DNA of 64,000 nucleotides from Alphaproteobacteria bacterium (GTDB lineage Bacteria > Pseudomonadota > Alphaproteobacteria > JAJFFI01): contig JASJBI010000057.1 in NCBI GenBank assembly GCA_030066595.1, positions 40,021 to 104,020 on the forward strand, given 5' to 3'. Made by a program: the position numbers and the translations under genes. The notes under the pieces were generated by a model, which saw only the letters and a program-made list of their open reading frames with translations, did not search any database and was not told the DNA's origin. Each line of letters begins with the position of its first letter. Position 1 is the first letter of the stretch. Below are positions 19,200 to 60,378 of the stretch, piece after piece.

Positions 19200-19274
19200 C
19201 GGATCTCTTTCACCGACTGACCGCGATCACCACGGGATCCTATGCGCGCAAGCCGCTCTTGCAAGAGCCGTGTT

Positions 19275-21418: not shown

Positions 21419-21461
21419 GGCAATGCCTCCTCTCAATGCAGGCGATGTCCGGCCCGCTCGC

Positions 21462-21782
21462 TCACCGAATCGGCGAGAACGACACGGGCACGATGATCTT
21501 GTCCTCCTGGGTCATCAGCGCGCCCAGCTCTTCGTTCCGCCGCAGAAACTCCTGCCAGGCGGGATCCTGAGCCATCGCCGCGCGGCGGCGCTGGCGGTCG
21601 GCCAGATCCTCGAATCCCCAGAGATGGATGACCTGGTTGAGCGGGCCGATCTCGGTCTGGAAGAAGCCGATGAGATTGCCGAGGTGCTCGAGCTGGACCG
21701 GCAAGGCGTACTGCTCGTAGAGCGCCAGCCACTTGCCGAGCTTGAGGGGATACAGCGTGTAGGAACGGTGATCGATAATCAT
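21462..21782 (-). CDS. NIPSNAP-family protein
   Basis: MIIDHRSYTLYPLKLGKWLALYEQ...IHLWGFEDLADRQRRRAAM is the typical NIPSNAP pattern. Confidence 0.7.
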   Translation of the reverse strand: MIIDHRSYTLYPLKLGKWLALYEQYALPVQLEHLGNLIGFFQTEIGPLNQVIHLWGFEDLADRQRRRAAMAQDPAWQEFLRRNEELGALMTQEDKIIVPVSFSPIR

Positions 21783-21832
21783 GGTCTTTTCCTCCCCTTG
21801 TGGGTCGCCAGGTCACGACGGCGCGTGGCGCG

Positions 21833-22951: not shown

Positions 22952-22954
22952 GGT

Positions 22955-23797: not shown

Positions 23798-24669
23798 AGC
23801 CGCTCGTCCCGGCGGAACAGATAGAAATAGACCGTCGTAGACGCCACCAGGATGGCGAACATGACCACGGCGATGGCCGCGCCCGTGCCGGCCTCGTAGA
23901 AGTGGAAGGTGCGCAGATAGGCATAGACCGGCAGGGTGCGGATGTACTTCTCGGCGCCGCCGCCCTGGGTGATCAGCCAGACCGTGTCGAACTTGGTGAA
24001 CATCCAGATGCTGCGCAGCAGGATGACCACGAAGAGGACGCTCATCAGCTGCGGGAGCGTGACGTGCAAAAAGCGGCGTACCGCGCCGGCTCCGTCCACC
24101 TTCGCGGCTTCGTAGAGCTCGTGCGGAATGGTCTGCAGGCGCGCCAGAACGGCGAGCACGACGAACGGAAAGAACTGCCAGACCGAAATGAGGATGAGCG
24201 ACACCATGATATAGCTGCGCCCCATCCAGCTGATGTTCTCGTCCGTAATGCCGAACGCCACCAGGCCATAGTTGACGAGCCCGAACTGGTTGTTCAGCAG
24301 CCATTTCCACAGGATCACGGCGACCACGGTCGGGATCATGTAGGGAAACAGGACGATGCCCCGAACCAAGTTCCGGGCGGGGAACATCTCGTTCAGGACC
24401 AGTGCTGCGGCCACGCCGAGGACGATCTGAAGGATGATGGTCGAGACGGAGTAGATCACGCCGCGCCAGAGGCTCGACCAGAAATCGGGGTCGCCCAGGA
24501 GAAAGCCGTAGTTCGCCAAGCCGATGAAGGTCTGACCGGGGAAGAAGGAGTGCTTGGCATGAAAGCTCAGCCAGATCCCGTGCATCACCGGATAGAGCGT
24601 CAGACACAGAAGCAGCGCGACCGCAGGCGCGATCAGGAGGAGACCCGTGCTGCTTTGGGATAGCCTCAT
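23794..24669 (-). CDS. Sugar ABC transporter permease (UgpA/MalF-like)
   Basis: MRLSQSSTGLLLIAPAVALLL... with an EAA loop (YEAAKVDGAGAVRRFLHVTLP). Confidence 0.8.
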   Translation of the reverse strand: MRLSQSSTGLLLIAPAVALLLCLTLYPVMHGIWLSFHAKHSFFPGQTFIGLANYGFLLGDPDFWSSLWRGVIYSVSTIILQIVLGVAAALVLNEMFPARNLVRGIVLFPYMIPTVVAVILWKWLLNNQFGLVNYGLVAFGITDENISWMGRSYIMVSLILISVWQFFPFVVLAVLARLQTIPHELYEAAKVDGAGAVRRFLHVTLPQLMSVLFVVILLRSIWMFTKFDTVWLITQGGGAEKYIRTLPVYAYLRTFHFYEAGTGAAIAVVMFAILVASTTVYFYLFRRDERL

Positions 24670-24789
24670 ACATCGCCCTTTGTCTGAGTGCGGTCTCGGA
24701 TTTCGATCTGCGTCGAACGGGCGTAGCTGGAGAGGCGGCAGCAAACGAATTCGCCGCCACCCCTCCTCACGGATCGCGCCCTCAGCCGA

Positions 24790-28670: not shown

Positions 28671-28861
28671 GTCTTCCAAAATCCCCTGTTCTCCGCCGTT
28701 TACGGCGACGTAGCGGATCTGCGACGCCGCCGCCCCAGGTCGACTGAGTGCCCGCCGACCCGGAGAGCACAATTCGATCGCCTAGGACTGACCTTGCCGA
28801 TCCGAACGTAACCTTGACCCATGAAGCTTTTGTGACATTTCGCTTACATTTGTGTAACGAA

Positions 28862-28875
28862 TTGAGCAGGCTCAA
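28862..28875. promoter_or_regulatory. FixK/FNR-type box TTGAGCAGGCTCAA (TTGA-N6-TCAA)
   Basis: Perfect palindromic half-sites, intergenic. It lies about 190 nt upstream of the usp-crp operon (minus strand) and about 130 nt upstream of the histidine phosphatase gene (plus strand). Confidence 0.55.
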
Positions 28876-29002
28876 TTGTTTCCAGGATATTGCGGTGCAA
28901 TATGGATCCGCCCGGCAAATCGCCGGGACGGACGGTTGCGAGTGTTCGCGTTGCGACCCTTGGCAGCCGCTGAGGGGTATTGAGCAGGCGCTGGGTTTCA
29001 TG

Positions 29003-29554
29003 TCAGTTAGGTTCGAGTTCGGGGCGGCGACCTTCTATTTCCTGCGTCATGGGGAGACCGACGCCAATAAGAACGGGATCGTTCAGGGGCAGCAGGACAC
29101 GCCGCTGAACGCCCGCGGCCGACGCAGTGCCGAAGAGGCCGGCCTGCGGCTGATGCCGGTAGGGCTCGGATCGATCTATGCAAGTCCCCTGAAACGCGCC
29201 TGGCAGACCGCCACGATCGTCTCGCGCTTGACCGGCGCCCCGGTCCATCCGCTGCCGGGCCTGAAGGAACGCCATTGGGGCATATATGAGGGCCGCCGTA
29301 AGAGCATGCGTCCGCGCGAGCCCGATCCCCCGAGCGTCGAACGGATGGCCGCCTTCAAGTCCCGGGTGCTCGGCGCCCTGCGGACCATCGTCGGACCGCC
29401 GCCGGTGCTTGTGGTGGCACATTCAGGTGTGTTTCGGGTGCTTTGTGCCGAGATCGGCCTCGAGATCACGACGCCCTACTCGGTCGCCAGCACGCAGTTG
29501 CTGCGTTTAGAGCCCCCGGGGACCGATCACCGCTGGCATATTACCGAGGTCTAG
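29003..29554 (+). CDS. Histidine phosphatase family protein (phosphoglycerate mutase-like)
   Basis: FYFLRHGETDAN...DTPLNARGRRSAEEAG is the RHG catalytic motif. Paralog of the gene at 49177-49734. Confidence 0.8.
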   Translation, partial: SVRFEFGAATFYFLRHGETDANKNGIVQGQQDTPLNARGRRSAEEAGLRLMPVGLGSIYASPLKRAWQTATIVSRLTGAPVHPLPGLKERHWGIYEGRRKSMRPREPDPPSVERMAAFKSRVLGALRTIVGPPPVLVVAHSGVFRVLCAEIGLEITTPYSVASTQLLRLEPPGTDHRWHITEV

Positions 29555-47196: not shown

Positions 47197-47578
47197 TTTC
47201 GAGATGGCATGCTATGGTTAGCCTAGTCGTGCTGAATCGGCGCGCGTCGGGACAGGATCCGGCGCTGGCTCAGACCGCGGGGTCCAAATTCACCGGCTCC
47301 CTTTTTGGTTTGCGGCCAGGACTGCCTGAGCGGCAGTGCGAAGAGACCGGTCAGCAGGGCTTCGCGCTGCTGTCGGCGGGGCAGTCGGCTCGTCAGCGGC
47401 AACGCGTAAGGGGAGATCGCTGGGAGGCGTGAAGATTCTTGTTTGCAGAAAGTTAATGCGACTCAAGGTATTGCGGTGGGGCCTGGCGGGCCATGGTTAA
47501 CCGGCCCGGGTGCCGCAACCGCATGCAAGAGCGCCTCCATCGCCGCGCCAGGCGGCCAACCAGGTGGTGGTAGAAACG

Positions 47579-49144
47579 ATGTTTGAGACCGCAGAAATCG
47601 GACGGAAGGTCGCCAAGGCGACCTACAACAAGCAAGTCCCGCTATTGCGGCTGGAGCTGCTCGAGGTTCAACAGGAACTGCGCCAGGCGGGGTTCCCCGC
47701 CATCGTGCTGTTCGGCGGCGTCGACGCGGCCGGCAAGAGCGAGACCGTCAATCTGCTCAACGAATGGATGGACCCGCGCTGGCTCACCACGTCCGCCTAC
47801 GTAGATCCCTCCGACGAGGAGAAGGAGCGGCCCGAGTTCTGGCGCTATTGGCGTGACCTGCCGCCGAAGGGACAGATCGGTCTGTTCCAGAGTGCCTGGT
47901 ATTCCAGGGCCATTCGGGCGCGGGTCTACGGGGGCCTTTCGGATGCCGGGTTCGACAAGGCGCTCGAGCGCATCGAGACCTTCGAGAAGGAGCTCGCCGA
48001 CGACGGCACACTGATCCTCAAGTTCTGGCTGCACCTCAGCCGGGAAGGCCAGAAAAAGCGCTTCAAAGCCTTGGAATCCGACCCGCTGACAAGCTGGCGG
48101 GTGGCCAAGACCGACTGGGAGAACCTCAAGCACTATGACGACTTCGTGGCCGCGTCCGAACGTGCGATCGCCCGCACCAGCACGGGCGAGGCGCCCTGGC
48201 ACATCGTCGAGGGCTACGACCTGCGCTACTGCGGTCTGAGCGTGGCAGAGACGCTCAGGGATGCGCTGCAGAAGCATTTGCGCGAAGCGGAAATCAAGCA
48301 AGAGCTCGTTGCTCAGATGCAGATCGACGAAAGCCTCGCCCAGGACGAGCCCGCAGCGGCGCCGAAGAAGGGTAACGGGGCCGATGAAGACGCGGGCGCA
48401 GGTGTCGTCCTCTCGCCGCGCGTGACCATCTTGAGCCGGCTGGACATGAACCAGACCCTGTCCAAGAGCGATTACCGCACCCAGTTGGCGAAGTATCAGG
48501 CCAAGCTGCACAAGCTGAACCGCGAGGCGATCAAGCGCAAACTTTCGTCGATTTTCGTGTTCGAGGGCTGGGACGCCGCCGGCAAGGGCGGCGCCATCCG
48601 CCGGATGACCCAGGCGCTCGATGCGCGGAGCTATCGGGTCATTCCGATCGCGGCGCCGACCGACGAAGAGAACCAGCACCACTATCTATGGCGGTTCTGG
48701 CGCCATATTTCGCGCGCCGGCCGGGTCACCATGTTCGACCGCAGCTGGTATGGCCGTGTGCTCGTGGAACGGGTCGAGGGCTTTGCCAGCGAGGCCGAAT
48801 GGCGGCGCGCCTACGGCGAGATCAACGATTTCGAGGAACAGCTGGTCAATCACGGCATCCTCCTGCTCAAGTTCTGGGTGCACGTCACACCGGAGGAGCA
48901 GTTGGTCCGGTTCAAGTCCCGTGAGGAGGTGCCGTACAAGCGCTGGAAGCTCACCGATGAGGACTGGCGCAACCGCGAGAAATGGGGCGACTACGAGGAG
49001 GCGGTCAACGACATGATCGAGCGGACCAGCACCGCCTCGGCGCCCTGGACCCTGGTTGAGGGCAACGACAAGCGGTTCTCCCGCGTGAAGGTGATCCAGA
49101 CCGTCTGTGACAGTTTGGAGGAGCGGCTCAAGGCTGAGGCCTAG
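47579..49144 (+). CDS. ppk2: Two-domain polyphosphate kinase 2 (PPK2 tandem domains; polyphosphate:AMP phosphotransferase type)
   Basis: Two PPK2 P-loop domains (FGGVDAAGKSET...; FEGWDAAGKGGAI...) each followed by conserved W/R lid regions. Confidence 0.85.
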   Translation: MFETAEIGRKVAKATYNKQVPLLRLELLEVQQELRQAGFPAIVLFGGVDAAGKSETVNLLNEWMDPRWLTTSAYVDPSDEEKERPEFWRYWRDLPPKGQIGLFQSAWYSRAIRARVYGGLSDAGFDKALERIETFEKELADDGTLILKFWLHLSREGQKKRFKALESDPLTSWRVAKTDWENLKHYDDFVAASERAIARTSTGEAPWHIVEGYDLRYCGLSVAETLRDALQKHLREAEIKQELVAQMQIDESLAQDEPAAAPKKGNGADEDAGAGVVLSPRVTILSRLDMNQTLSKSDYRTQLAKYQAKLHKLNREAIKRKLSSIFVFEGWDAAGKGGAIRRMTQALDARSYRVIPIAAPTDEENQHHYLWRFWRHISRAGRVTMFDRSWYGRVLVERVEGFASEAEWRRAYGEINDFEEQLVNHGILLLKFWVHVTPEEQLVRFKSREEVPYKRWKLTDEDWRNREKWGDYEEAVNDMIERTSTASAPWTLVEGNDKRFSRVKVIQTVCDSLEERLKAEA

Positions 49145-49176: not shown

Positions 49177-49734
49177 TCAGGCCGAGAAGGCGCGGACCCG
49201 CCAGAGCCCGCCGGGACGGTCGGGCGGCTCGAAGCGAACCGGCAGCCCATGGGGCACGCTGCCGCCCCGGCCGATGTCGATCCCGGCATGCGCGCAGATC
49301 ATTCGAAAGACGCCTGAATGGGCCACGATCAGCGGTGGCGAGGAGCCGACGATCGCGTTGAGGCTGTCGGCCACGCGCGCCAGAAACGCCTGTTGTGTTT
49401 CGCCGCCCCGAGGCGACGTTCCGAACGGCCGCTCGCCCTTGGGGCGTCCCTGATAGATGCCCCAGTTCCTGGCCAGCAGACCAAAGAGGGGCCGCGTCGC
49501 CACGCGCGTCGCGCGGGAAACGATCGAGGCAGTTTCCAGCGCCCGGTCCAGGGGGCTCGTGTAGATCGCCGAAATGGCAGCCCCGGAGAGAAGCCCGGCC
49601 GCGGCCTCGGCCTGGGTCCGTCCCGCTCGACCGAGAGGCGTATCGAGCTGCCCTTGCAGAATCCCTGCCTGGTTCGCCTCGGTCTCGCCGTGGCGCAGGA
49701 AGTAGAAGGGCTGCTCTGGCAGCGGTGACAGCAT
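49177..49734 (-). CDS. Histidine phosphatase family protein (paralog of 29003-29554)
   Basis: FYFLRHGETEANQAGILQGQLDTPLGRAGRTQAEAAAGLL...IYTSPLDRALETASIVSR is about 60% identical to the other copy by eye. The track's 49818 start is an N-terminal extension. Confidence 0.75.
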   Translation of the reverse strand: MLSPLPEQPFYFLRHGETEANQAGILQGQLDTPLGRAGRTQAEAAAGLLSGAAISAIYTSPLDRALETASIVSRATRVATRPLFGLLARNWGIYQGRPKGERPFGTSPRGGETQQAFLARVADSLNAIVGSSPPLIVAHSGVFRMICAHAGIDIGRGGSVPHGLPVRFEPPDRPGGLWRVRAFSA

Positions 49735-50225
49735 GCTCGGCCCCGGACGTAGACAATCGCGGGCTGGTTCCGGTGAAGATCCGCAGGAGGACTCGGTTGG
49801 GCCCAGCCGCTTTTGCAACTTTCCAGGGCTTGGCTAAATATTTCGTTAACTTTTGAGGGAAATTTGTCCCAGCCCAGCGGGGCAGGGGGCCGCTCATTCG
49901 ACGGACCCCGGCAGAGGCGCGCTGGCGCGCCGGGCCGAGATCGGCGGAATCGGTTTATTGCGCTGTATCAATTTACTAAGCTTGCCGTCTGGTTATGTTC
50001 GGACACGTGTCCTGAAATCCGTGGCCGGCGGGCCGGCTGAATGGCGCTTGCGGGTTTTCTTGGGTTCGGGGCCGAGCGACGAGTGTCGGCGCGATGTGGA
50101 GAGGGGACGTGATTGCAAGTGGCAAGATGGTGGTCCGGGACAGAGCCCGTGTGCTCAACGGGAGCCCGCGTAGTGCGGGTCCGGCCTGCCGGCGACGCTG
50201 TCCGGCTCCGACGGTGAGGTGAACC

Positions 50226-50921
50226 GTGGGCGGCAGGATTCTCGTTGTCGAAGATGAACTGGCGATCCGGGAGATGATCGGGCTGGCCCTGTCCAGAGCC
50301 GGGTTCTCATACACCTACGCGGTCAGCACGACGGCGGCACAAGAGGAACTCGAACGAGACCTGCCGGACCTGATCCTGCTGGACTGGATGCTGCCGGGCA
50401 GCTCCGGCATCGAATTCATTCGCTGGCTCAAGCGCACCGAGTTCACCCACGAGGTGCCGGTCGTGATGCTCACCGCCCGTGGCGAAGATGAGGACAAGGT
50501 TCAAGCCCTGAATCTCGGTGCGGACGACTATGTCACGAAGCCGTTCTCGCCGCGGGAGTTGGTGGCACGCATCGAGGCCGTCTTGCGCCGGACCAAACCG
50601 CATGCCACCGACAGCCCTGTCGAGCTGTGCGGCTTGAGGATCGATCCCCGCAGTCGCCGGGTCCACGCGGACGGGCACGCGGTCGACCTCGGACCGATCG
50701 AGTTCCGCATGCTGCATGTGCTGATCTCTCAGCCGGACCGCGTCTACAGCCGGGCACAGCTCTTGGACCTGGTTTGGGGCATCAACATCCACGTCGGCGA
50801 ACGCACCGTCGACATGCACATCAGCAATCTGCGCAAGGCGCTGGCACAGCACAGCAGCGGCCATCTGATCGAAACGGTGCGAGGCACCGGATACCGTTTC
50901 GCGATGCAGGCTCAGCAATGA
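50226..50921 (+). CDS. phoB: Phosphate regulon response regulator PhoB (OmpR family)
   Basis: Receiver domain (ILVVEDELAIREMI...LILLDWMLPGSSGIEF...) and winged-helix output domain (TVDMHISNLRKAL...GTGYRF). GTG start. Confidence 0.9.
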   Translation: MGGRILVVEDELAIREMIGLALSRAGFSYTYAVSTTAAQEELERDLPDLILLDWMLPGSSGIEFIRWLKRTEFTHEVPVVMLTARGEDEDKVQALNLGADDYVTKPFSPRELVARIEAVLRRTKPHATDSPVELCGLRIDPRSRRVHADGHAVDLGPIEFRMLHVLISQPDRVYSRAQLLDLVWGINIHVGERTVDMHISNLRKALAQHSSGHLIETVRGTGYRFAMQAQQ

Positions 50922-52258
50922 TTGGGGCTTGGCGCAAGGAGCTGCTGCTGGTTGCCGGGGTCGCCGCGCTGCTCTGGATCATCGGGCGTGCCATTGGCCA
51001 GCCCGGTCCGCTGCTGGCGGCCGGCCTGATCGGCTATCTCGGCTGGCATATCTTCAACCTGGTCCTCCTGCAGCTCTGGCTGCGACGCCGCCGCAGCGCC
51101 CGGCTGCCTCTCTCCTGGGGCGTTTGGGAAGCCGCGTTCGATGGTCTCCAGCAGGTCCAGAGCCAGCATCGACGGCGCCGGGGGCGGCTCACCCGCGCGC
51201 TCGCGGAATTCCGGGCGGCTGCGGCGGGGCTGCCCGACGCGCTGGTCGTATTGGACGAAACGAACTGTATCCGGTGGACCAATCCCGCGGCGACGCGGCT
51301 CTTGGGCGCGGACCGGCGGGTCCACCTGGGCAGCGACATCCGGGATCTGCTCCGGCATCCGATCCTCGAGGATGACCTGGCCGCGCCAGGGGCGAGTCGT
51401 CCCCTGGAGATCCCCTCGCCGGCGAACGGCGCATGGATGCTGAGCGTTCAGGTGACCCGGGTCCTGGGCGACCGGCGAGACGGTCAGCGGGTTCTGGTGG
51501 CGCGTGACGTCACCTCGATCTACAAATTCGACCGGGCGCGCCGCGATTTCGTGGCCAATGTTTCGCATGAACTGCGTACGCCGATCACCGTCTTCCGCGG
51601 TTTCCTCGAGACCTTGCGCGACATGTCCGACGGCAACATTGAGTGGGCCCGTCCGGTTGCGCTCATGGACCGCGAGGCCGCGAAGATGCAGAACTTGGTC
51701 GGCGATCTCTTGACTCTGTCACGCCTGGAGATGGCGGACCGGCCGAAGTCCGACCAACCGGTTCCGGTCGCCAACATGCTGGCCGAGATCTGCGCGGACG
51801 CCAGATCGCTGAGCGGCGCCGACAGCCACCGGCTCGTACTGGATGCCGATCCTGGACTATGGCTGCGGGGCGATCGGCAGGAGCTCCAGAGCGCGTTTTC
51901 CAATCTGGTGTTCAACGCCGTGAAGCATACGCCGCCCGGGACCACGATCGATGTCCGCTGGGACGCCTACGCGGACGGCGCAGCCCTGGCCGTGCGGGAC
52001 ACGGGGCACGGTATCGCCGCCCATCATCTGCCGCGTTTGACCGAACGCTTCTATCAGGTGGATACCGGCCGGGCGCGCCGCAACGGGGGCACCGGGCTGG
52101 GGCTGGCGATCGTCAAGCAGGTGCTCGAGCACTATCGGGGCGAGTTGCGGATCGCCAGCCGCGAGGGCGAGGGCAGCGCCTTCACCTGCACATTTCCGAA
52201 TGCCGTGGTCGAGGTCGACCAAGCCGCGAGCCGCTCTCTCGAGCGGGTTTGCGCCTGA
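50918..52258 (+). CDS. phoR: Phosphate regulon sensor histidine kinase PhoR
   Basis: TM N-terminus, PAS-like region, H-box (FVANVSHELRTPITV) and HATPase N, G1 and G2 boxes. Its ATG overlaps the phoB stop (ATGA). Confidence 0.85.
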   Translation: MIGAWRKELLLVAGVAALLWIIGRAIGQPGPLLAAGLIGYLGWHIFNLVLLQLWLRRRRSARLPLSWGVWEAAFDGLQQVQSQHRRRRGRLTRALAEFRAAAAGLPDALVVLDETNCIRWTNPAATRLLGADRRVHLGSDIRDLLRHPILEDDLAAPGASRPLEIPSPANGAWMLSVQVTRVLGDRRDGQRVLVARDVTSIYKFDRARRDFVANVSHELRTPITVFRGFLETLRDMSDGNIEWARPVALMDREAAKMQNLVGDLLTLSRLEMADRPKSDQPVPVANMLAEICADARSLSGADSHRLVLDADPGLWLRGDRQELQSAFSNLVFNAVKHTPPGTTIDVRWDAYADGAALAVRDTGHGIAAHHLPRLTERFYQVDTGRARRNGGTGLGLAIVKQVLEHYRGELRIASREGEGSAFTCTFPNAVVEVDQAASRSLERVCA

Positions 52259-52412: not shown

Positions 52413-53297
52413 ATGCAAAAAGCGAAGCCGGACTGGCGAGTTGCCGTGGTGTTGGCCGCAATCGCGGTTCTCTTTTATCAGCAGGCGAATGCCCGTGATC
52501 TGATCCAGAACAAGGGCTCGGACACGCTGGTGAACGTCGCCCAGGCCTGGGCCGAGAACTATCAGAAGGTGAACAGCGACGTTGCGGTCGCCGTCACCGG
52601 CGGTGGCTCCGGCACCGGAATTGCGGCGATGATCAACGGGACCGTCGACATCGCCAATGCCAGCCGGGCGATGAAGAAGAAGGAACTCGATCTGGCGAAG
52701 TCGAAGGGCCAGAATCCGATCGAGCATATCGTCGGCTATGACGCCCTGGCGGTCTTCCTGCACGAGAGCAATCCGGCCAAATCCATATCGATCGCCCAGC
52801 TCGCGGAGATCTACGGCGAGGACGGCAAGACGGAGAAGTGGACCGACATCGGCCTCGAGGTGCCGAAGTGCAAGGGCCAGGAGATGGTGCTGGTCAGCCG
52901 GCAGAACAATTCCGGGACTTATGCCTATTTCCGTAAGGCCGTGCTCGGCAAGCGGCGCGACTACAAGATGGGCACCCGTGATATGCACGGCTCCAAGGAC
53001 GTCGTCGACCTGGTCGAGAAGACTCCCTGCGCCATCGGCTACAGCGGCCTCGCTTACGCGACCGACCACATCAAGATGGCCTGTGTCTCCAAGGAAGAAG
53101 GCAAGCCCTGCGTGATGCCCTCCGTCGCGACAGCGAGCGACGGGACCTATCCGATCGCGCGCCCGCTGTTCATGTACACGAACGGCGAGCCGAAGGGGCA
53201 GATCAAGGCCTATCTGGACTGGATCCTCAGCGACGAGGGCCAGTGCATCATCTTCAAGAAGGGATACGCCCCGGTTCGTGCCGTCAAGTGCGGCTGA
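52413..53297 (+). CDS. pstS: Phosphate ABC transporter substrate-binding protein (PstS family)
   Basis: Signal-anchor N-terminus and a PBP-like body (DTLVNVAQAWAENYQK...VTGGGSGTGIAAMINGTVDIANASR). Confidence 0.8.
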   Translation: MQKAKPDWRVAVVLAAIAVLFYQQANARDLIQNKGSDTLVNVAQAWAENYQKVNSDVAVAVTGGGSGTGIAAMINGTVDIANASRAMKKKELDLAKSKGQNPIEHIVGYDALAVFLHESNPAKSISIAQLAEIYGEDGKTEKWTDIGLEVPKCKGQEMVLVSRQNNSGTYAYFRKAVLGKRRDYKMGTRDMHGSKDVVDLVEKTPCAIGYSGLAYATDHIKMACVSKEEGKPCVMPSVATASDGTYPIARPLFMYTNGEPKGQIKAYLDWILSDEGQCIIFKKGYAPVRAVKCG

Positions 53298-53302
53298 GCC
53301 GC

Positions 53303-53340
53303 CCGGCCCGGGTCGACCTCCGTGGTCGACCCGGGGCCGG
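53303..53340 (+). terminator. GC-rich hairpin just after the pstS stop (CCGGCCCGGGTCGACC-tccgt-GGTCGACCCGGGGCCGG)
   Basis: Inverted repeat read directly from the sequence. There is no U-tract, as is common in high-GC genomes. It may act as an attenuator between pstS and the downstream genes. Confidence 0.35.
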
Positions 53341-53464
53341 CTCCGGCATAGATGCCGCGGGGGCGGACCGTACGACGGACGCTCTCGCGAGAGAGAGCCT
53401 GCGGATCGATCAGCGGGCCTGGCAGGGCCCGAGCGCGCAAGGGGCGTAGTGGAGCTAAGCTATC

Positions 53465-54550
53465 ATGACGCTTTACGAGGAAAGACTGTCGAAGGATCTG
53501 GGCCGCCTCCGCGACGAGGTCGCGACGATTGGGGCGGCGGTGCAGACGGCGCATGAGAATGCGGCCCAAGCCGCGTTAACCGGCAACCGGACGCTCGCCA
53601 ACCTCACCATCATCGGCGATCATCCCATCAATCGGCGGGTCCGCGAGATCAACCGGCTGGCGCACGCCTTCCTTGCGGTTCATCAACCCAGCGCCGGCCA
53701 CCTTCGCCTGATCTCCTCGATCCTGCGCCTGGTCAACGAGCTCGAGCGTATCGGCGATTACGCCGTGACCATCGCCCGCGAAGCGCTGCAACTGCCGCAT
53801 ACGCCCACGGGTCTGCTCAAGCAGGAGTTCGAGCAGATGGCCGATCAGGCGCAGACCTGCCTGCGCCAGTCGATGACCGCCTTCAACGAGAGGAATGCGG
53901 ACCTCGCCCGAGAGACGAAGGCGCTGGCGTCACAAGCCAAGGGCCGCGGTGACACGGTGTTCGGCGAGCTGGTTGAGGAAGCCGAAAAGGAGCAGATCCG
54001 CTACCTCTTCGACGTCCTGATCATGGTCGGACGGCTCAAGCGCGTGGCCGACCGGGCCAAGAACATCTGTGAAGAGACGCTGTTCACGGTCACCGGCGAG
54101 ACCAAGGCCCCGAAGGTCTACAAGATCTTGTTCCTCGACCAGGAGAACAACTGCCAGAGCCAGCTCGCCGAGGCGTTCGCCCGCAAGACCTTCCCGAACA
54201 GCGGGCAGTACAACAGCGCCGGCCGGGTCAACGGCGTGGACCTCGCGCCCGGGCTGTTGAGCTTCATGGAGATGCACGGGCTGGCGGTCCAGCCGATGAC
54301 GCCCAAGACCATAGAGACAGATCTCGATCGGATTGCCGCCCACGATTTGGTGATCAGCCTGGACGGGCCGATGTCCGCCTATGTCGACAAGCAGCCGTTC
54401 CGGACCGTCTATCTGGAATGGGACGTCGGGGCGCGGCCGGAAGGGGCCGACGAGGCGGAGGTCGAAACGCGGTACCGCGAGATCTATCGCGAGATCTCGG
54501 CTCAGGTCCGTGCCCTGATGGAAACGCTCAGAGGCGAGGAGGCGGACTGA
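53465..54550 (+). CDS. phoU: PhoU-domain protein fused to a catalytically degenerate low-molecular-weight phosphatase (LMWPc/ArsC-like) domain
   Basis: N-terminal 215 aa with two PhoU repeats (LVNELERIGDYAVTIA; IMVGRLKRVADRAKNICEE). C-terminal 140 aa with an LMW-PTP fold pattern, but the P-loop reads ILFLDQENNCQSQLAEAF, where the canonical sequence is V-C-X4-C-R-S. The catalytic Cys is replaced by Asp and the Arg by Gln. Confidence 0.8.
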   Translation: MTLYEERLSKDLGRLRDEVATIGAAVQTAHENAAQAALTGNRTLANLTIIGDHPINRRVREINRLAHAFLAVHQPSAGHLRLISSILRLVNELERIGDYAVTIAREALQLPHTPTGLLKQEFEQMADQAQTCLRQSMTAFNERNADLARETKALASQAKGRGDTVFGELVEEAEKEQIRYLFDVLIMVGRLKRVADRAKNICEETLFTVTGETKAPKVYKILFLDQENNCQSQLAEAFARKTFPNSGQYNSAGRVNGVDLAPGLLSFMEMHGLAVQPMTPKTIETDLDRIAAHDLVISLDGPMSAYVDKQPFRTVYLEWDVGARPEGADEAEVETRYREIYREISAQVRALMETLRGEEAD

Positions 54551-54551
54551 C

Positions 54552-55499
54552 GTGGCCGACACGACCAGAACTGTCGCGGAGCCGATCCCCACCGCTGCGC
54601 CGGCCGCCTTCGATCGCCGGGACGCCGACTGGTATCTCGACAAGGCCGTACAGGTCCTCGTCTTCATCGGCGGCATCTCCGCGATCATCTTCATCATCGG
54701 GATCTTCGTCTTCGTCACCCGCGAAGGTTTCGGGTTCCTGCTGGAGGGGTTCAGTTTCGGCGAGTTCTTCGGCTCGCCGCGATGGAAGCCGACATCCGAA
54801 TACAACACCACCTATGGCATACTGGCCCTGGTTGCGGGCACCGCCAGCGTCACCGGCCTGGCGATGATCGTGGCGATCCCGTTCTCGCTCGGGGCCGCCA
54901 TCTATATCGCCGAGTTCGCGACCGGCAAGACGCGCGAGATTCTGAAGGTCCTGGTCGAGCTGCTGGCGGCGATCCCCTCGGTCGTGTGGGGCTTCATCGG
55001 TCTCACGATCATGAACCCGCTCATCATCGAGTTGTTCGACGTGCCGGTCGGGCTCAACGTGCTCAACGCCGGCGTGATCCTTGGTCTGATGGCGGCGCCG
55101 ATCATGACCTCGATCGCGGAGGACGCGCTCAAGGCGGTGCCGGACCGTTATCGCGAGGCGGCCGAGGCCATGGGGGCGACACGCTGGCAGGTGATCTACC
55201 GCGTCGTCTTGCCGGCCGCGAAGAACGGTTTGCTCGGGGCCGTGCTGCTGGGCGTCGGGCGCGGGTTCGGCGAGACCATGGCGGTGCTGATGGCCAGTGG
55301 CCACGCGGTCAATCTGCCCGACAGTATCTTCGATTCCGTGCGCGCTCTGACCGCCACCATCGCGGCCGAGCTGGGCGAGACCGCCGTCGGGTCCGAGCAC
55401 TATCAGGCGCTCTTCACCATCGGCATCTTCCTGTTCATCATCACTTTCCTCATCAACCTGACCGCCGACCTGATCGTGCGCGGCATCCGGAAGGGCTAG
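54552..55499 (+). CDS. pstC: Phosphate ABC transporter permease PstC
   Basis: Six TM helices with an EAA loop (EAAEAMGATRWQVIYRVVLP). GTG start overlapping the upstream stop. Confidence 0.85.
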   Translation: MADTTRTVAEPIPTAAPAAFDRRDADWYLDKAVQVLVFIGGISAIIFIIGIFVFVTREGFGFLLEGFSFGEFFGSPRWKPTSEYNTTYGILALVAGTASVTGLAMIVAIPFSLGAAIYIAEFATGKTREILKVLVELLAAIPSVVWGFIGLTIMNPLIIELFDVPVGLNVLNAGVILGLMAAPIMTSIAEDALKAVPDRYREAAEAMGATRWQVIYRVVLPAAKNGLLGAVLLGVGRGFGETMAVLMASGHAVNLPDSIFDSVRALTATIAAELGETAVGSEHYQALFTIGIFLFIITFLINLTADLIVRGIRKG

Positions 55500-55514: not shown

Positions 55515-56384
55515 ATGTTCGAAGCGACACCTCTCAATATCCAGGATCAGCGTCGGCAGGCTCTCGTCCGAATGCTGTTCCTGATCATGACGGCGCTGTT
55601 GATCCTGCCGGTGCTGATCATCCTGGCGACCCTGATCTACAAGGGCGGGCCGGCGATCTCGTGGGAGTTTCTGTTCGATGATCCCCGGGAAGGCATGACG
55701 GCGGGCGGCATCTTCCCGGCCCTCGTGGGCACGATCTGGCTGGTCGCCGTGGCCCTCCTGGTGTCCGTGCCCCTGGGCGTCGCTGCGGCCCTGTATCTCA
55801 GCGAGTTCGCCCCGGACAACTGGTTCACCCGGTTCATCAACCTGTGCATCATCAACCTCGCCGGCGTGCCTTCGATCGTGCACGCGCTGTTCGGGGTCGG
55901 CGCCTTCGTGCTGTTCTTCGGCTTCGGCACCAGCATCCTGGCCGCCAGCCTGACGCTGGCGATCATGACCCTGCCGATCGTCATCGTGGCCACGCGGGAA
56001 TCGTTGCAGGCTGTGCCGCTGGCCTTCCGCGAGGCGTGCTGGAACATGGGGGCTACACGCTGGCAGACCATCCACCGGGTCGTCCTGCCGAACGCCGTCA
56101 GCGGCATCCTCACCGGCGTCATCCTCGAGGTGTCGCGAACCACCGGCGAGACCGCACCGATCATGTTCACGGGCGCGGCGTTCTTCCTGCCGTTCCTGCC
56201 GACGAGCGTGTTCGACCAGACGATGGCGATGTCGCTGCACCTGTTCGTGATCTCCACGCAGGTGCCGGGGGTGCCGGACCATTTGCCCTACGGCGTCGCG
56301 CTGGTGTTGATCGCCATGGTCTTGACCATGAACGCCGCATCAATCGGCCTGCGCATGTATCTGCGCGGCAAGAAGAAGTGGTAA
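55515..56384 (+). CDS. pstA: Phosphate ABC transporter permease PstA
   Basis: TM helices with an EAA loop (REACWNMGATRWQTIHRVVLP). Confidence 0.85.
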   Translation: MFEATPLNIQDQRRQALVRMLFLIMTALLILPVLIILATLIYKGGPAISWEFLFDDPREGMTAGGIFPALVGTIWLVAVALLVSVPLGVAAALYLSEFAPDNWFTRFINLCIINLAGVPSIVHALFGVGAFVLFFGFGTSILAASLTLAIMTLPIVIVATRESLQAVPLAFREACWNMGATRWQTIHRVVLPNAVSGILTGVILEVSRTTGETAPIMFTGAAFFLPFLPTSVFDQTMAMSLHLFVISTQVPGVPDHLPYGVALVLIAMVLTMNAASIGLRMYLRGKKKW

Positions 56385-56389
56385 GGGCG

Positions 56390-57205
56390 ATGAACGACCA
56401 GGGGGTTGCCACGATTCTCGAGACGTCCCAGCCCGCGACCGCGGCGAAGGGACCGGTGAAGCTTGCCGTCCACAACCTGTCCATCAGCTATGGCGGCACG
56501 CCGGCGCTGGTCGGCGTCGACCTGGAGATCCACGAGAACGAGATCTTCGGCATCATCGGTCCCGCCAACAGCGGCAAGACGTCGTTCCTCAAGGCGCTGA
56601 ACCGGATGGACATGTTCAACCCGGCCATGCAGGTCGCGGGCGACATCCTGTTCAACGGCACCAACATCCGCCAGTGGCGCAATGTCTACGCACTGCGTCG
56701 GCGCATCGGCGTGGTCTTCCCCCTGCCGGTGGGCCTGCCGATGACCGTCTACGACAACGTCGCCCTGGCGCCACGGCTTTCGGGCGTCAACAGGAAGGCG
56801 GACTTGGACGATATCGTGGAGCGCTGTCTCCGGCGCGCGGCGCTGTGGGACGAGGTCAAGGACCGCCTCGACTCGCTGGGCAGCCTGCTCTCCGGCGGCC
56901 AGCAGCAGCGCCTGACCATCGCCCGGGCGCTCTCGCAAGACCCGGAGCTCTTGATGCTGGACGAGTTCTCCATCGCCGTGGACCCGGTGACCACGATGCG
57001 CATCGAGGACGTGCTCAAGGAGCTGCGGACGGAAATGACCATCATCCTCGTCACCAACCTGACCCAGCAGGCACGCCGCCTGGCCGATCGCACGGCCTTC
57101 TTCCTGACCGGAAGCTGCGTCGAGATCGGCGACACCGAGGCCTTGTTCACCGGCAACGTCCAGGACACGCGCACCGCGGACTACATCGCCGGCCGGTTCG
57201 GATAG
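56390..57205 (+). CDS. pstB: Phosphate ABC transporter ATP-binding protein, degenerate paralog (PstB1)
   Basis: PstB-like throughout, but the Q-loop is VVFPLP (Q replaced by P), the D-loop region is LMLDEFSIAVDP and the H-loop is ILVTNLTQQARR (His replaced by Asn). The ABC signature LSGGQQQRL is intact. ATG at 56390; the track's 55844 start is an extension. Confidence 0.8.
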   Translation: MNDQGVATILETSQPATAAKGPVKLAVHNLSISYGGTPALVGVDLEIHENEIFGIIGPANSGKTSFLKALNRMDMFNPAMQVAGDILFNGTNIRQWRNVYALRRRIGVVFPLPVGLPMTVYDNVALAPRLSGVNRKADLDDIVERCLRRAALWDEVKDRLDSLGSLLSGGQQQRLTIARALSQDPELLMLDEFSIAVDPVTTMRIEDVLKELRTEMTIILVTNLTQQARRLADRTAFFLTGSCVEIGDTEALFTGNVQDTRTADYIAGRFG

Positions 57206-57226: not shown

Positions 57227-58042
57227 ATGCATGAGCCGATCATGAACGAGACCCGTGCGGCCAATGGCGGCAATGGACACGACGCCATCTTCACCCGAGA
57301 CCTCAATCTCTGGTACGGCGACTTCCAGGCGCTGTTCGACGTGAACCTGGCCATCAAGGACGGCATGATCACCTCGCTGATCGGGCCGTCCGGCTGCGGC
57401 AAGACCACCTTCCTGCGCAGCATCAACCGCATCAACGAGCGGCTGGGCTACGTCCGTACCGAGGGCTCGATCCTGGTGTTCGACACGGACATCTACGGCG
57501 GCGAGGTGGAGCTCGCCCAGGTGCGCAAGCAGATCGGGATGGTGTTCCAACGACCGAACCCGCTGCCGATCTCGATCAGCGATAATGTGCTGTTCGGCTT
57601 CCAGCTCCATGGCGAAGGGCGCACGCGCATGCACAAGAGCGAGAAGGAAGAGATCGTCGAAGCGGCGCTCAAGCAGGTCCTGCTCTGGGATACGGTCAAG
57701 GACCGGCTGGACAGCAAGGCGACCGAGCTGTCGCTGGAGGAACAGCAGAAGCTCTGCATCGCGCGCCTCCTGCCGGTGAAGCCCACCATCCTCTTGATGG
57801 ACGAGCCCTGTTCCGCGCTCGACCCCAAGGGCACGGAGGCGGTCGAGGAGCTCATCTGGGAGCTGCGCGGCGACTACACCATCGTCATCGTCACGCACAA
57901 CATGGCGCAGGCGCGGCGCGCCAGCGAGGAATGCATCTTCATGCTGATGGGCAAGGTGGTGGAGCACACGGCGACCGAGGACATGTTCGTCACGCCGGCC
58001 AAGAAGGAAACCGCTGACTACATCGAAGGCCGCTACGGCTGA
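57227..58042 (+). CDS. pstB: Phosphate ABC transporter ATP-binding protein (PstB2) with canonical catalytic motifs but a degenerate signature
   Basis: Walker A GPSGCGKTT, Q-loop VFQRP, Walker B LLMDEPCSALDP and H-loop VTHNMAQARR are canonical. The signature reads LSLEEQQKL in place of LSGGQQQRL. Confidence 0.85.
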   Translation: MHEPIMNETRAANGGNGHDAIFTRDLNLWYGDFQALFDVNLAIKDGMITSLIGPSGCGKTTFLRSINRINERLGYVRTEGSILVFDTDIYGGEVELAQVRKQIGMVFQRPNPLPISISDNVLFGFQLHGEGRTRMHKSEKEEIVEAALKQVLLWDTVKDRLDSKATELSLEEQQKLCIARLLPVKPTILLMDEPCSALDPKGTEAVEELIWELRGDYTIVIVTHNMAQARRASEECIFMLMGKVVEHTATEDMFVTPAKKETADYIEGRYG

Positions 58043-58191: not shown

Positions 58192-58395
58192 TTTGCTGCA
58201 AGTGCGAAATCGGTAATGTTCCGTACTTGACGGGACTGGCCCAAAGGGGGGCGTCAAGCTCGCCGGCAGCGGTCGCTGCGGTCGGGTGAGACACGAAACG
58301 CGGTTAGGCCAGTCCCGTTCGCAAGCTCTCCGGATCCCGGCGCAGCCATGTCCGTTCGTGCGCCGCGGTCCAATGCGAAGACAGGGGTGTCGCCT

Positions 58396-59076
58396 ATGGC
58401 CAGAACAAGTCCTTTTGCCAGCCTGTTCGCTCAGTCGCCGTTCAAGCCGATGCAACAACACATCGGCGTTGTCGCACGCTGCGCGTCGAACGTGCCCGAT
58501 CTTTTCGAGGCGTTGTGCGACGGCGATCAGGCCAAGGTATCCGAGGTCAAGGACAAGATCTTTGCCCTCGAGAATGAAGCCGACGGGATCAAGAACGAGC
58601 TACGCGCCCATTTGCCCAAGAGCCTGTTCATGCCGGTCGACCGCCGCGATCTGCTGGAGCTCCTGGATGTGCAGGACTCGATCGCGGACACGGCCCAGGA
58701 CATCGCGGGGCTGCTCATCGAGCGGCCCATGGAGGTGCCGGACGGGTTCAAGGAGCCGCTGCTCGGCCTGACCCGCCGCTGCGTCGACGCATGCAATCAG
58801 GCCGAGAAGATCATCGGCGAGCTGGACGAGTTGGTGTCGACCGGATTTCGGGGTCGAGAGTCCGAGCTTGTGTCGGAGATGGTCGACGAGCTCAACAAGA
58901 TCGAGGCCGACACCGACGAGATGGGCATGGATCTGACCCGGCGCCTGTTTGCCAAGGAAGACCAGCTCAAGCCGGTGTCGGTGATGTTCTGGTATCAGCT
59001 CATTCAGTGGATCGGCGATCTCGCCGACTACGCGGAAAAAGTGGGGAATCGACTGCGCTTGCTGCTTGCGCGCTGA
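58396..59076 (+). CDS. DUF47-family (PhoU-like, Pit accessory) protein
   Basis: Typical DUF47 helical protein (SLFAQSPFKPMQQHIGVVARCASNVPDLFEAL...ENEADGIKNEL...) immediately upstream of pit. Confidence 0.8.
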   Translation: MARTSPFASLFAQSPFKPMQQHIGVVARCASNVPDLFEALCDGDQAKVSEVKDKIFALENEADGIKNELRAHLPKSLFMPVDRRDLLELLDVQDSIADTAQDIAGLLIERPMEVPDGFKEPLLGLTRRCVDACNQAEKIIGELDELVSTGFRGRESELVSEMVDELNKIEADTDEMGMDLTRRLFAKEDQLKPVSVMFWYQLIQWIGDLADYAEKVGNRLRLLLAR

Positions 59077-59112: not shown

Positions 59113-60378
59113 ATGGAACTCATTTCACTCTACGGCACGGTCTTCATTGTGATGGCCATCGTGTTCGGCTTCTACATGACCTGGGGCATCGGCGCCAACG
59201 ATGTCGCCAACGTCATGGGCACCTCTGTCGGCTCGGGCGCGATCACCGTCACCACGGCGATCATCATTGCCGGCATCTTCGAGTTTGCCGGCGCGGCGCT
59301 GGCCGGCGGGCACGTGACCAAGACGATTCGCAAGGGAATCATCGACCCGACCCCGATCGTCAACAACCCCGAGATCCTGGTCTTCGGCATGTTGGCGGCC
59401 TTGCTGGCGGCCGCGGTCTGGCTCACCGTTGCCTCGGCGCGCGGCTGGCCGGTCTCGACCACTCATTCGATCATCGGCGCCGTGGTTGGGTTTGCCATCG
59501 CCGGGATCGGCATGGAAGCCGTTCAGTGGGGCAAGATCGGACAGATCGTGGCCAGCTGGGTCGTCTCGCCCGTGCTGGGCGGCACGATCGCGTTCATCCT
59601 CATGATCAGCATACGGCGTCTGATCCTGAACACTGAGACCCCTTTCGTGAACGCCAAACGTTGGGGGCCGGTCTACGTGTTCCTGGTCGGCTTCATCATG
59701 TCTCTGGTGACCATGTACAAGGGCCTCAAGCACCTGAAGCTGGACCTCAGCGTGCCCATGAGCTTCCTCGTCGCAGCGATCTTCGGACTCATCGTCGCAG
59801 CTATCGGTTGGTATCTGATCAGCCGGGTGAAAGTGGATGAGCGCGCCGACAAGGATCACCATTTCGCCAGCGTCGAGAAGGTCTTCGTGCCGATGATGCT
59901 GTTCACCGCCTGCGGCATGGCTTTCGCGCACGGCTCGAACGATGTCGCCAACGGCGTGGGTCCGCTGGCGGCCGTCTACGGCTTGGTCCAGTCAGGCGGC
60001 GAGGTGGCCCAAAGGTCCGAGTTACCGCTGTGGATCCTGGTGCTCGGCGGGGTCGGGATCATCGTCGGTCTGGCGACCTTCGGCTACCGGGTCATGCGGA
60101 CCATCGGCACGAAGATCACCGAGCTCACGCCGACGCGCGGCTTCAGCGCCACCATGGCGGCCGCGGCGACGGTTGTGCTGGCGTCCCGGACCGGCATGCC
60201 GGTCTCGACCACCCATATCGCGGTCGGCGCGGTGATGGGCGTGGGCCTGGCACGAGGCATCGGCGCCATCGACCTGCGGGTCATCGGCGGGATCTTCGTC
60301 TCCTGGATCGTAACCCTGCCGATCGGCGGCGTGCTGGCCGCCCTGTTCTTCTTCACCCTGAAGGGCATGTTCACATAG
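59113..60378 (+). CDS. pit: Inorganic phosphate transporter PitA (PHO4 family)
   Basis: GANDVANVMGTSVGSGAIT...GSNDVANGVGPLAAV are the duplicated PHO4 signature repeats. Confidence 0.9.
   Translation: MELISLYGTVFIVMAIVFGFYMTWGIGANDVANVMGTSVGSGAITVTTAIIIAGIFEFAGAALAGGHVTKTIRKGIIDPTPIVNNPEILVFGMLAALLAAAVWLTVASARGWPVSTTHSIIGAVVGFAIAGIGMEAVQWGKIGQIVASWVVSPVLGGTIAFILMISIRRLILNTETPFVNAKRWGPVYVFLVGFIMSLVTMYKGLKHLKLDLSVPMSFLVAAIFGLIVAAIGWYLISRVKVDERADKDHHFASVEKVFVPMMLFTACGMAFAHGSNDVANGVGPLAAVYGLVQSGGEVAQRSELPLWILVLGGVGIIVGLATFGYRVMRTIGTKITELTPTRGFSATMAAAATVVLASRTGMPVSTTHIAVGAVMGVGLARGIGAIDLRVIGGIFVSWIVTLPIGGVLAALFFFTLKGMFT

Follow-up and report, generated by a model that had tools for sequence, protein, structure and literature searches.

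The phoU* locus

The window, as we call the whole stretch of 64,000 nucleotides analysed here (positions 40,021 to 104,020 of contig JASJBI010000057.1, assembly GCA_030066595.1, from an Alphaproteobacteria bacterium), contains a Pst phosphate transport operon of six genes: pstS, phoU*, pstC, pstA, pstB1 and pstB2. The second gene, which we designate phoU*, encodes a fusion protein in which PhoU is joined to a domain with the fold of arsenate reductase (ArsC) and of low-molecular-weight protein tyrosine phosphatases (LMW-PTPs), and in this domain the catalytic residues have been replaced. We find that the same architecture is repeated in thousands of proteins and that it is accompanied, in whichever direction the association is searched, by two diverged PstB ATPases with complementary losses of their motifs. 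The coordinates of the genes and features are given in Table 1.

The ATG of phoU* is preceded by GGAG 11 nt upstream. At the other end of the gene the GTG of pstC lies 1 nt past the phoU* TGA (54548-54554), with GGAGG 8 nt upstream of it, inside the 3' end of phoU*, and translational coupling of the two genes is likely; the tight junctions of phoB with phoR and of phoU* with pstC fit translational coupling along the cluster. The original prediction, made from the sequence of the window, had read the gene order as pstS-phoU-pstCAB and had called the place of phoU atypical. The order is as described save for the second pstB gene, and the place of phoU* is the rule for this type of operon: Proteobacteria, Nitrospirales and Binatia carry phoU* between pstS and pstC, and Fibrobacterota, Verrucomicrobiota and most Acidobacteriota have it in front of pstS. 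In many of the related loci PhoB and PhoR flank the operon, before or after it. No second PhoU was found within the window; a canonical pstSCAB-phoU lies within 10 kb of the fusion/PstB1 locus in five related loci (L037, L045, L056, L065 and L140).

Table 1. Genes, protein domains and RNA feature of the phoU* locus (positions in the window; scores are followed by the cutoff of the model)
Feature	Position	Strand	Basis
phoB, response regulator, immediately upstream of the module	50226..50921	+	Open reading frame (ORF)
phoR, sensor kinase	50918..52258	+	Start overlaps the phoB stop (ATGA, 50918-50921)
pstS, phosphate-binding protein	52413..53297	+	PF12849 E 3e-43; TIGR02136 236 (cutoff 206.6)
GC-rich hairpin, directly after the pstS stop	53301..53342	+	Folding energy (dG) -36.8 kcal/mol
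phoU*, PhoU fused to an ArsC/LMW-PTP-fold pseudo-enzyme domain, 361 aa	53465..54550	+	ORF, Pfam, NCBIfam, AlphaFold 2 (AF2)
PhoU domain, residues 7-212, two three-helix repeats	53483..54100	+	TIGR02135, PF01895 twice, AF2 helices 2-210
Conserved linker G-E-T-K-x-P-K, residues 213-220	54101..54124	+	K214 and K217 nearly invariant
LMWPc/ArsC-like domain, residues 221-350	54125..54514	+	PF01451, family profile against 1jl3, Foldseek
Pseudo-P-loop D225-Q-E-N228-N-C230-Q231-S232 (ArsC C10...R16-S17)	54137..54160	+	HMMER alignments
pstC, permease, GTG start	54552..55499	+	TIGR02138 275 (cutoff 196)
pstA, permease	55515..56384	+	TIGR00974 261 (cutoff 193)
pstB1, diverged ATPase	56390..57205	+	TIGR00972 282, below cutoff 343.2
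pstB2, ATPase	57227..58042	+	TIGR00972 321, below cutoff 343.2

PhoU* is a PhoU joined to an ArsC-like domain without catalytic residues

The N-terminal 212 residues of PhoU* score 140.9 against the NCBIfam equivalog TIGR02135 (phoU_full, cutoff 130.25), and Pfam matches PF01895 in two stretches of the protein (E 6e-25). Of the two E/D-x-x-x-D motifs, which are associated with metal binding in PhoU, that of the first repeat, E94-x-x-x-D98, has both acidic residues invariant. The motif of the second repeat reads L-K-R-V-A-D in the clade to which the window protein belongs (hereafter the window's clade), with Lys in place of Glu, and L-E-R-V-S-D in other clades. Given also that the gene is encoded with pstSCAB and phoBR, the N-terminal half is, by profile and context, a bona fide PhoU. 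It shares with the canonical PhoU of E. coli the equivalog score, the two repeats, the first motif and a pst operon placed by phoBR. In contrast to it, PhoU* carries about 145 additional C-terminal residues with an ArsC fold, its second E/DxxxD motif reads K-R-V-A-D, its gene comes before pstC or first in the operon where the canonical gene comes last, and it is always found with two diverged PstBs.

The C-terminal domain (C-domain) matches LMWPc (PF01451) over residues 221-350, from model position 1 to 142 of 144, with 29.8 bits against a gathering score of 23.2. A profile of the family built from 27 members detects B. subtilis ArsC (PDB 1jl3) at E 7e-12, whereas the LMW-PTPs proper remain above E 0.01. 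The AF2 model of full-length PhoU* has a predicted local distance difference test score (pLDDT) of 89.7 and a predicted template modelling score (pTM) of 0.74, and that of the C-domain alone a pLDDT of 89 and a pTM of 0.87. Superposed on ArsC structures, the C-domain model gives a template modelling score (TM) of 0.76-0.78 with a root-mean-square deviation of 2.2-2.8 A (Foldseek E 1e-8), and on LMW-PTPs a TM of 0.63-0.69; it has the four-stranded parallel alpha/beta arrangement of this fold, with the P-loop between beta1 and alpha1. Thus the fusion, its domain boundaries and the LMW-PTP/ArsC fold, all of which the original prediction had proposed, are borne out by TIGR02135 and PF01451 scores above their cutoffs and by a model that reaches TM 0.78 to ArsC. 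By profile and fold, the C-domain descends from an enzyme of the thioredoxin-type ArsC/LMW-PTP kind.

None of the catalytic chemistry of that enzyme appears to have been retained. HMMER alignment to 1jl3 sets C10-T-G-N-S-C15-R16-S of the B. subtilis enzyme against D225-Q-E-N-N-C230-Q231-S of PhoU*, which reproduces the register, the Cys-to-Asp and the Arg-to-Gln replacements first noticed in the window protein; neither the catalytic Cys nor the Arg of the C-X5-R-(S/T) P-loop is present. The remaining ArsC catalytic positions are replaced as well, C82 by D300, C89 by V307 and D105 by A323, as mapped with a B. subtilis ArsC sequence that scores the same as PDB 1jl3. A323 takes the place of the general-acid Asp of the Asp-Pro (DP) loop after beta4, a position that is variable in the window's clade. 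All five ArsC catalytic residues are therefore substituted in the window protein, and its description as a pseudo-enzyme holds as regards thiol chemistry. Against TIGR02691, the model of thioredoxin-coupled arsenate reductase, the C-domain scores 31.3 bits where the cutoff is 174.3. Since the domain lacks every catalytic feature looked for, its annotation as arsenate reductase or phosphatase would be wrong.

The closest relatives of the C-domain are nonetheless the thioredoxin-coupled ArsC proteins (B. subtilis 1JL3, S. aureus pI258 1LJL), which are its best match at 26% identity and have Asn13, Cys15, Ser17, the SAG turn and a Trp in common with it. They differ at Cys10 (Asp in PhoU*), Arg16 (Gln), Cys82 (Asp), Cys89 (Val) and Asp105 (not conserved), and with these residues replaced the C-domain, as judged from the alignment, cannot run the Cys10-Cys82-Cys89 relay. 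With the LMW-PTPs (Wzb, YfkJ, PtpA, bovine and human LMPTP; PF01451) it shares the fold and the position of the P-loop, yet the TM to them is only 0.63-0.69 and the window protein does not carry C-X5-R; a sister clade of the family, described below, has D-X5-R together with the DP loop and lacks the Cys alone.

A widespread family with an ancestral Cys-to-Asp change

The window protein is identical to a protein from an alphaproteobacterial metagenome-assembled genome (MAG) annotated as 'phosphate signaling complex protein PhoU'. At least 120 full-length relatives of 358-364 residues, 48-72% identical to it, have the same PF01895 plus PF01451 architecture. A profile search of 1.84 billion cluster representatives returned 304 clusters at E <= 1e-10 (about 300 clusters at the level of 50% identity), and all but one of the top 150 are the fusion or a fragment of it, the exception being a triple-ArsC protein. 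When a Fibrobacter-type sequence was used as the seed, 2,904 more proteins were found at E <= 1e-20, of which the top 120 all have this architecture. A scan of species-representative genomes, whose pattern demanded Gln or Leu at the Arg position and to which other states were invisible, gave 71 loci, all from MAGs, and every named relative from the two protein searches likewise comes from a MAG. The hosts are Alpha- and Gammaproteobacteria (the latter including Ectothiorhodospiraceae, Thiotrichales and Thiodiazotropha symbionts), Nitrospirales, Binatia, Acidobacteriota, Fibrobacterota, Verrucomicrobiota, Myxococcota and KSB1. The PhoU* system is abundant in MAGs from sediments, symbionts and gut, with at least 572 metagenome stretches. 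The phylogenetic survey of the fusion that the original prediction had proposed thus yields thousands of full-length relatives in at least eight phyla, and an architecture repeated in thousands of proteins is far beyond chance.

Shorter matches of 90-270 residues, which suggested further architectures, have N-termini that begin in the middle of PhoU and are fragments. The triple-ArsC exception (P0234, 456 aa) has three ArsC-like domains in tandem, all of them seemingly intact and with the motifs C-N-H-N-S-C-R-S and C-C-G-C. Four unfused ArsC-like proteins that keep the Cys and have Leu for Arg (L067-L070) were caught because the search pattern demanded Gln or Leu at the Arg position; we considered them as ancestors of the C-domain and did not accept them as demonstrated ones, as the C-domain profile gives them 45-49 bits, no better than B. 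subtilis ArsC. In two of these loci (L067 9902-10417 and L070 9965-10411) the stand-alone protein, with L-F-L-C-x-D-N-S-C-L-S, is encoded directly upstream of a pst operon that is otherwise canonical, pstSSCAB-phoU-phoB, in deltaproteobacterial MAGs; here, independently of the fusion, an ArsC-like protein lacking the Arg is associated with pst genes a second time.

Among the 120 relatives of the window's clade the pseudo-P-loop is one of the best-conserved segments of the alignment: D225 is found in 120, N228 in 119, C230 and S232 in 114 each, and beyond the loop P311-F312 and W319 in all 120. The Arg position holds Gln in 93 and Leu in 20. The sister clade, represented by 120 sequences from the Fibrobacter-seeded search, has Asp at the nucleophile position in 118/120, the P-loop Arg in 79/120 and the DP loop in 101/120, and keeps Asn13, Cys15 and Ser17 in 114-117/120; its commonest form is D-[DE]-H-N-x-C-R-S ... 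W-x-[VI]-x-D-P-S. Over 109 sequences with less than 60% mutual identity, position 225 is acidic in 105 (99 Asp, 6 Glu), while the Arg position holds Leu in 47, Gln in 17, Arg in 12, Ala in 12 and other residues in the rest. Divergent members have almost any hydrophobic residue at the Arg position, and some of their loops contain Pro. The residues constant throughout the family are F223, A235, A237, F267, L299, W319, L351, the SAG turn, P311, G357 and the lysines of the linker; position 313 is basic in 93/109 and position 320 acidic in 63/109.

From this distribution, the Cys-to-Asp change is ancestral to the family and universal in it; Arg was replaced by Gln or Leu, and the DP loop lost, secondarily and specifically in the window's clade and some others. 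Given that the Cys nucleophile was already Asp in the common ancestor, the C-domain is neither an arsenate reductase nor a Cys-dependent phosphatase. The proposal that Arg-to-Gln is a defining feature of the domain does not stand: only Cys-to-Asp is family-wide, and Arg is kept in 79/120 of the sister clade. Likewise, we had to give up a family-wide loss of the anion cradle as too strong, as the sister clade keeps the Arg and the DP loop and earlier searches were biased to the window's clade.

The conservation of the C-domain (about 20 positions, the architecture and the length, across at least eight phyla and thousands of proteins) points to strong purifying selection. It also bears on one explanation of a domain that has lost all its catalytic residues, namely that it is a decaying remnant of ArsC without a function of its own. 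A relic would fit the loss of catalysis. Yet the AF2 model is confident, no truncated forms are seen, the short matches being fragments, and conservation of this extent effectively refutes it, so that we regard it as hardly credible.

The operon encodes an asymmetric pair of PstB ATPases

The strongest contextual fact about PhoU*, absent from the original prediction, is its obligate pairing with the two asymmetric PstBs encoded at the end of its operon. PstB1 and PstB2 of the window are 38% identical to each other, and both are clearly derived from PstB, as TIGR00972 is the best match of each. In the consensus of 51 orthologues PstB1 keeps its Walker A (GPANSGKT), a canonical LSGGQ signature and its Walker B (LDEF) and has lost the Q-loop Gln to Pro (VFPLP) and the H-loop His to Asn (VTN). 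In that of 48 orthologues PstB2 is canonical at Walker A, Q-loop, Walker B and H-loop and has a degenerate signature, LSLEEQQ. In about 50 operons the motifs that make up this asymmetry are at least 90% conserved, and the operons of fusions with a P-loop Arg (R-type operons) agree with them both in gene order and in the asymmetry of PstB1 and PstB2. As a control, the canonical single PstB encoded beside a plain PhoU on the same contig as a fusion locus (L056) has all its motifs intact. In one R-type operon on a long-read contig (L152, 9275-13486) pstS, pstA and both pstB genes are split into short ORFs; with the gene order intact, a frameshift sequencing error is the most likely cause, rather than pseudogenisation.

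The losses in the two nucleotide-binding domains (NBDs) are complementary, as in ATP-binding cassette (ABC) transporters with a degenerate site. In a head-to-tail dimer, the motifs place one consensus site between the catalytic residues of PstB2 and the signature of PstB1, and leave the other site degenerate. The loss of the Walker B Glu that is the usual hallmark in exporters is not seen here, PstB1 having kept L-D-E-F.

The association of this pair with the fusion was followed in both directions. Forward, every fusion locus of the 71-locus scan that is long enough has pstC, pstA, PstB1 and PstB2 in a fixed order. For the reverse direction a segment specific to PstB1 served as bait in metagenomes; the C-terminal half of PstB1 (LDEFSIA[VI]DPVTTMRIE...VTN) is 62-90% identical across phyla, whereas the C-domain of the fusion is 25-30% identical between the same phyla. 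At least 572 stretches were found and 80 loci kept; among these 80, the fusion is present in 28/28 loci with at least 3.1 kb of upstream sequence and PstB2 in 55/55 loci with enough downstream sequence. Within these samples the association of the fusion with PstB1 and PstB2 is two-way.

A role for the C-terminal domain

What we observe is thus two domain identities, catalytic residues that have been replaced, strong purifying selection and an ATPase pair that obligately accompanies the fusion. We tentatively favour, with a confidence slightly short of even, the reading that the C-domain acts as a fixed second contact, coupling PhoU to the asymmetric PstB1-PstB2 heterodimer; the contact itself, that is physical docking, its stoichiometry and its regulatory output, we infer. 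By analogy with E. coli PhoU, the PhoU half would make contact with the ATPase PstB and the kinase PhoR, keep the Pho regulon repressed and act as a brake on transport. In E. coli, PhoU is reported to bind PstB and the PAS domain of PhoR and to restrain both signalling and transport (Gardner et al. 2014, cited in PMC12976172; PMC9239213, PMC13577022). The transporter would have a single catalytic ATP site, made of PstB2 residues and the LSGGQ of PstB1, and the other ATP site, in which PstB1 without its Q-loop Gln and H-loop His faces the LSLEE of PstB2, would be regulatory. One oriented PhoU per transporter would make PhoU* a built-in sixth subunit, and the functional face of its C-domain would be the old active-site surface around the invariant Asp.

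The two-way co-occurrence argues for such a coupling role. The conserved linker, the confident full-length model (pTM 0.74) and the coupling of phoU* to pstC fit a stoichiometric subunit. Many lineages keep the domain yet scramble its P-loop, so the function they share cannot rest on a canonical anion cradle, which again argues for coupling. Several points weigh against this reading. Docking alone accounts neither for the invariance of Asp, of all residues, at the old nucleophile position nor for the P-loop Arg, Ser and Asn and the DP loop retained by the greater part of the sister clade, and both features point to ligand binding. The co-occurrence may reflect the shared descent of one operon type, not direct interaction, and the samples in which it was counted are capped at 80 loci and biased towards sequences that match the search patterns.

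These points lead to the alternative raised by the original prediction, that the P-loop pocket still binds an oxyanion, inorganic phosphate (Pi) or arsenate, without turnover. As a cytoplasmic sensor, which we consider possible but doubtful and which is compatible with docking, the domain would hold its ligand with the Asp accepting a hydrogen bond from protonated phosphate and its occupancy reporting high internal Pi to PhoU, a detail on which we are equally reserved; its output, no more probable in our view, would be to slow the transporter down and to put PhoR into phosphatase mode. In PstS an Asp ligand selects protonated phosphate. The sister clade speaks for such binding, as it keeps D-x-x-N-x-C-R-S (Arg 79/120) and the DP loop (101/120) without the nucleophile, and a complete anion site that is selected without catalysis suggests binding; the R-type pocket has the look expected of a phosphatase site that holds phosphate and does not hydrolyse. 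In the window's clade, too, the loop-shaping N228, C230 and S232 are nearly invariant, and the neighbourhood is phosphate-related throughout (phoBR, PPK2, Pit). A basic residue, R254, which might stand in for the P-loop Arg, is present where the latter has been lost, and only 1 sequence has both; yet this exclusivity of positions 231 and 254 follows clade boundaries and may be phylogeny.

In the window protein itself the case is weaker, with Gln for Arg, no DP loop and a pocket that is net acidic (D225, E227, D320). Tight binding of phosphate is improbable in the window's clade, whose pocket is left with neither the Arg nor the acid loop. Of the 109 non-redundant members, 13 are basic at 231, 40 at 254 and 57 at neither, and the loops of divergent members are hydrophobic or contain Pro; a sensor also leaves the obligate link to the asymmetric ATPase unexplained. 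An anion-binding pocket is thus a weak proposal for the window protein (Q231, no DP loop), and one that the sister clade keeps alive for the family. Two basic positions were considered for the pocket and dropped. A relocation of the Arg to R254 finds no support as a rule for the family, given that over all sequences 86 have neither residue and that the split follows clades. The basic residue at 313 precedes beta4; going by the topology of the fold, the sheet probably separates it from the pocket, which makes it an unlikely ligand.

The same acidic residues invite a different ligand. D225, E227 and D320 could form a site for Mg2+, Mn2+ or a basic side chain, as the pocket is net acidic in the window's clade and position 320 is acidic in 63/109; E. 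coli PhoU is itself reported to bind metals (Gardner et al. 2014, cited in PMC12976172). Yet of the three residues only D225 extends through the whole family, and the R-type members have a basic pocket, so that a cation or metal site seems improbable to us.

An Asp that is invariant exactly at the nucleophile position might also be a nucleophile or phospho-acceptor in its own right, the domain being a new enzyme that dephosphorylates PhoB~P or PhoR~P or takes part in a phosphorelay. R-type members still have the Arg and the Ser as well as the DP general-acid loop, and an engineered C215D mutant of PTP1B reportedly retains weak activity. Still, the position is Glu, a poor nucleophile in such sites, in 6/109, and neither the Arg nor the acid loop is present in the window's clade. 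There is no conserved HAD DxDxT and no receiver-type acidic constellation, and no Pfam match to HAD or Response_reg was found in PhoU*. The +1 and +2 positions vary (DYQN, DQHN, DRNN), with E or D at +2 in 90/120 of one clade and H, N or Q in the other, and we rejected HAD-like or receiver-like DxD chemistry for this reason. A catalytic Asp is in our judgement very improbable.

Coupling through a fixed second contact is the reading we tentatively favour. The boldest reading is one of sensing: the Cys-to-Asp P-loop would be a phosphatase pocket turned into a Pi-selective cytoplasmic receptor, comparable to the Asp of PstS, that reads internal Pi and signals via PhoU to the degenerate PstB1-PstB2 site and to PhoR. 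We consider this unlikely; were it true, it would be the first direct Pi-sensing element identified in the Pst/PhoU/PhoR pathway and the first ABC importer regulated at its degenerate site by a pseudo-enzyme acting in trans.

Comparison with known systems

In proteins of the STYX type a phosphatase fold that has lost its nucleophile is reused as a binding or scaffold module. Another case is mt-SAF26, an LMWPc-fold protein of a trypanosome mitoribosome assembly intermediate (6SGA; 6sga is among the matches of our family profile), which like the C-domain has kept the fold after losing the nucleophile. PhoU* differs from such pseudophosphatases in that the replacement is specifically and invariantly Asp and that the domain is fused to PhoU in a transporter operon.

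The ATPase pair resembles the degenerate-site heterodimers of ABC exporters (TM287/288, TmrAB, BmrCD, PatAB, CFTR, TAP; PMC7756269), which likewise have two different NBDs, a composite site without its H-loop His and a degenerate signature on the partner. Those proteins are type IV exporters, whereas PstB1 and PstB2 belong to a type I importer and are encoded by separate NBD genes; PstB1 also retains the Walker B Glu and has lost the Q-loop Gln in addition. Adjacent pstB genes are known from Firmicutes (E. faecalis PstB1/PstB2 and B. subtilis PstBA/PstBB; PMC12096839, PMC11466899). The pair of the PhoU* operon differs from these in being 38% identical with complementary motif losses, and in its association with a PhoU fused to an ArsC-like domain.

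In the full-text literature, with subscription journals outside its coverage, we found no description of the fusion, of a degenerate PstB site in any Pst system or of their association. Databases label members of the family merely as PhoU and phosphate transport proteins, and the pair of domains is visible in precomputed Pfam annotations. Because they are annotated 'PhoU' and 'PstB', phosphorus-cycling surveys now lump the PhoU*-type system together with canonical Pst.

How the Pst transporter, PhoU and PhoR jointly sense phosphate is a long-standing question, and no structure of PhoU on PstB is known. The PhoU* operon offers a natural variant in which PhoU is apparently hard-wired, being embedded in the operon, coupled to pstC and matched to a heterodimer with one unique face; its complex with Pst should be easier to trap for cryo-electron microscopy and should show the seat of PhoU. 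The operon further extends degenerate-site asymmetry, mainly studied in exporters, to a type I importer, and it provides rare examples from nature of a Cys-to-Asp phosphatase P-loop, some with the Arg and some lacking it, as a model for what such pockets bind.

The pstS-phoU* spacer and neighbouring genes

The spacer between pstS and phoU* is 167 nt long and more structured than its shuffles (z = -3.0). The hairpin in it has a core of 12 consecutive base pairs, or 16 with four outer pairs across two single-base bulges. No T-run follows it and it is not a canonical intrinsic terminator; it is for this reason more likely an element of mRNA stability or processing, which would uncouple the level of PstS from that of the rest of the operon. 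Related loci commonly have a structured spacer of 70-200 nt at this place. A promoter and terminator scan of the pstS region gave nothing above shuffles, and Rfam and tRNA scans of the window gave no matches.

Just upstream of the pho/pst cluster lies a gene (47510-49144, +) for a two-domain PPK2 polyphosphate kinase of 544 residues, with two PF03976 domains. In at least ten related loci (L005, L010, L021, L025, L030, L031, L040 and L043-L045) a PPK2 gene comes right after pstB2 on the opposite strand, which suggests a conserved tie between the PhoU*-type Pst and polyphosphate metabolism. Between PPK2 and phoB is a gene of the histidine phosphatase superfamily (His_Phos_1, 49177-49818, -), of which phosphohistidine phosphatases of the SixA type are members. 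A homologue stands beside the operon in L087, L094, L118, L131, L135 and L140, and a paralogue with 52% identity is found in the window at 28748-29551 (+).

Directly downstream of pstB2 a PhoU_div/DUF47 gene (58348-59076, +) is followed by one for a PHO4/Pit transporter (59113-60378, +). DUF47 and Pit are a usual pair, and the same arrangement occurs in L072, in L093 and twice in L152. As annotated, the locus of the window encodes a high- and a low-affinity route for Pi, each with a PhoU-like regulator of its own. An unrelated ABC cluster with only distant similarity to Pst components is encoded further upstream in the window (18375-24766, -), with NBDs at 18375-19226 and 21836-22954 and a permease at 22958-24766.

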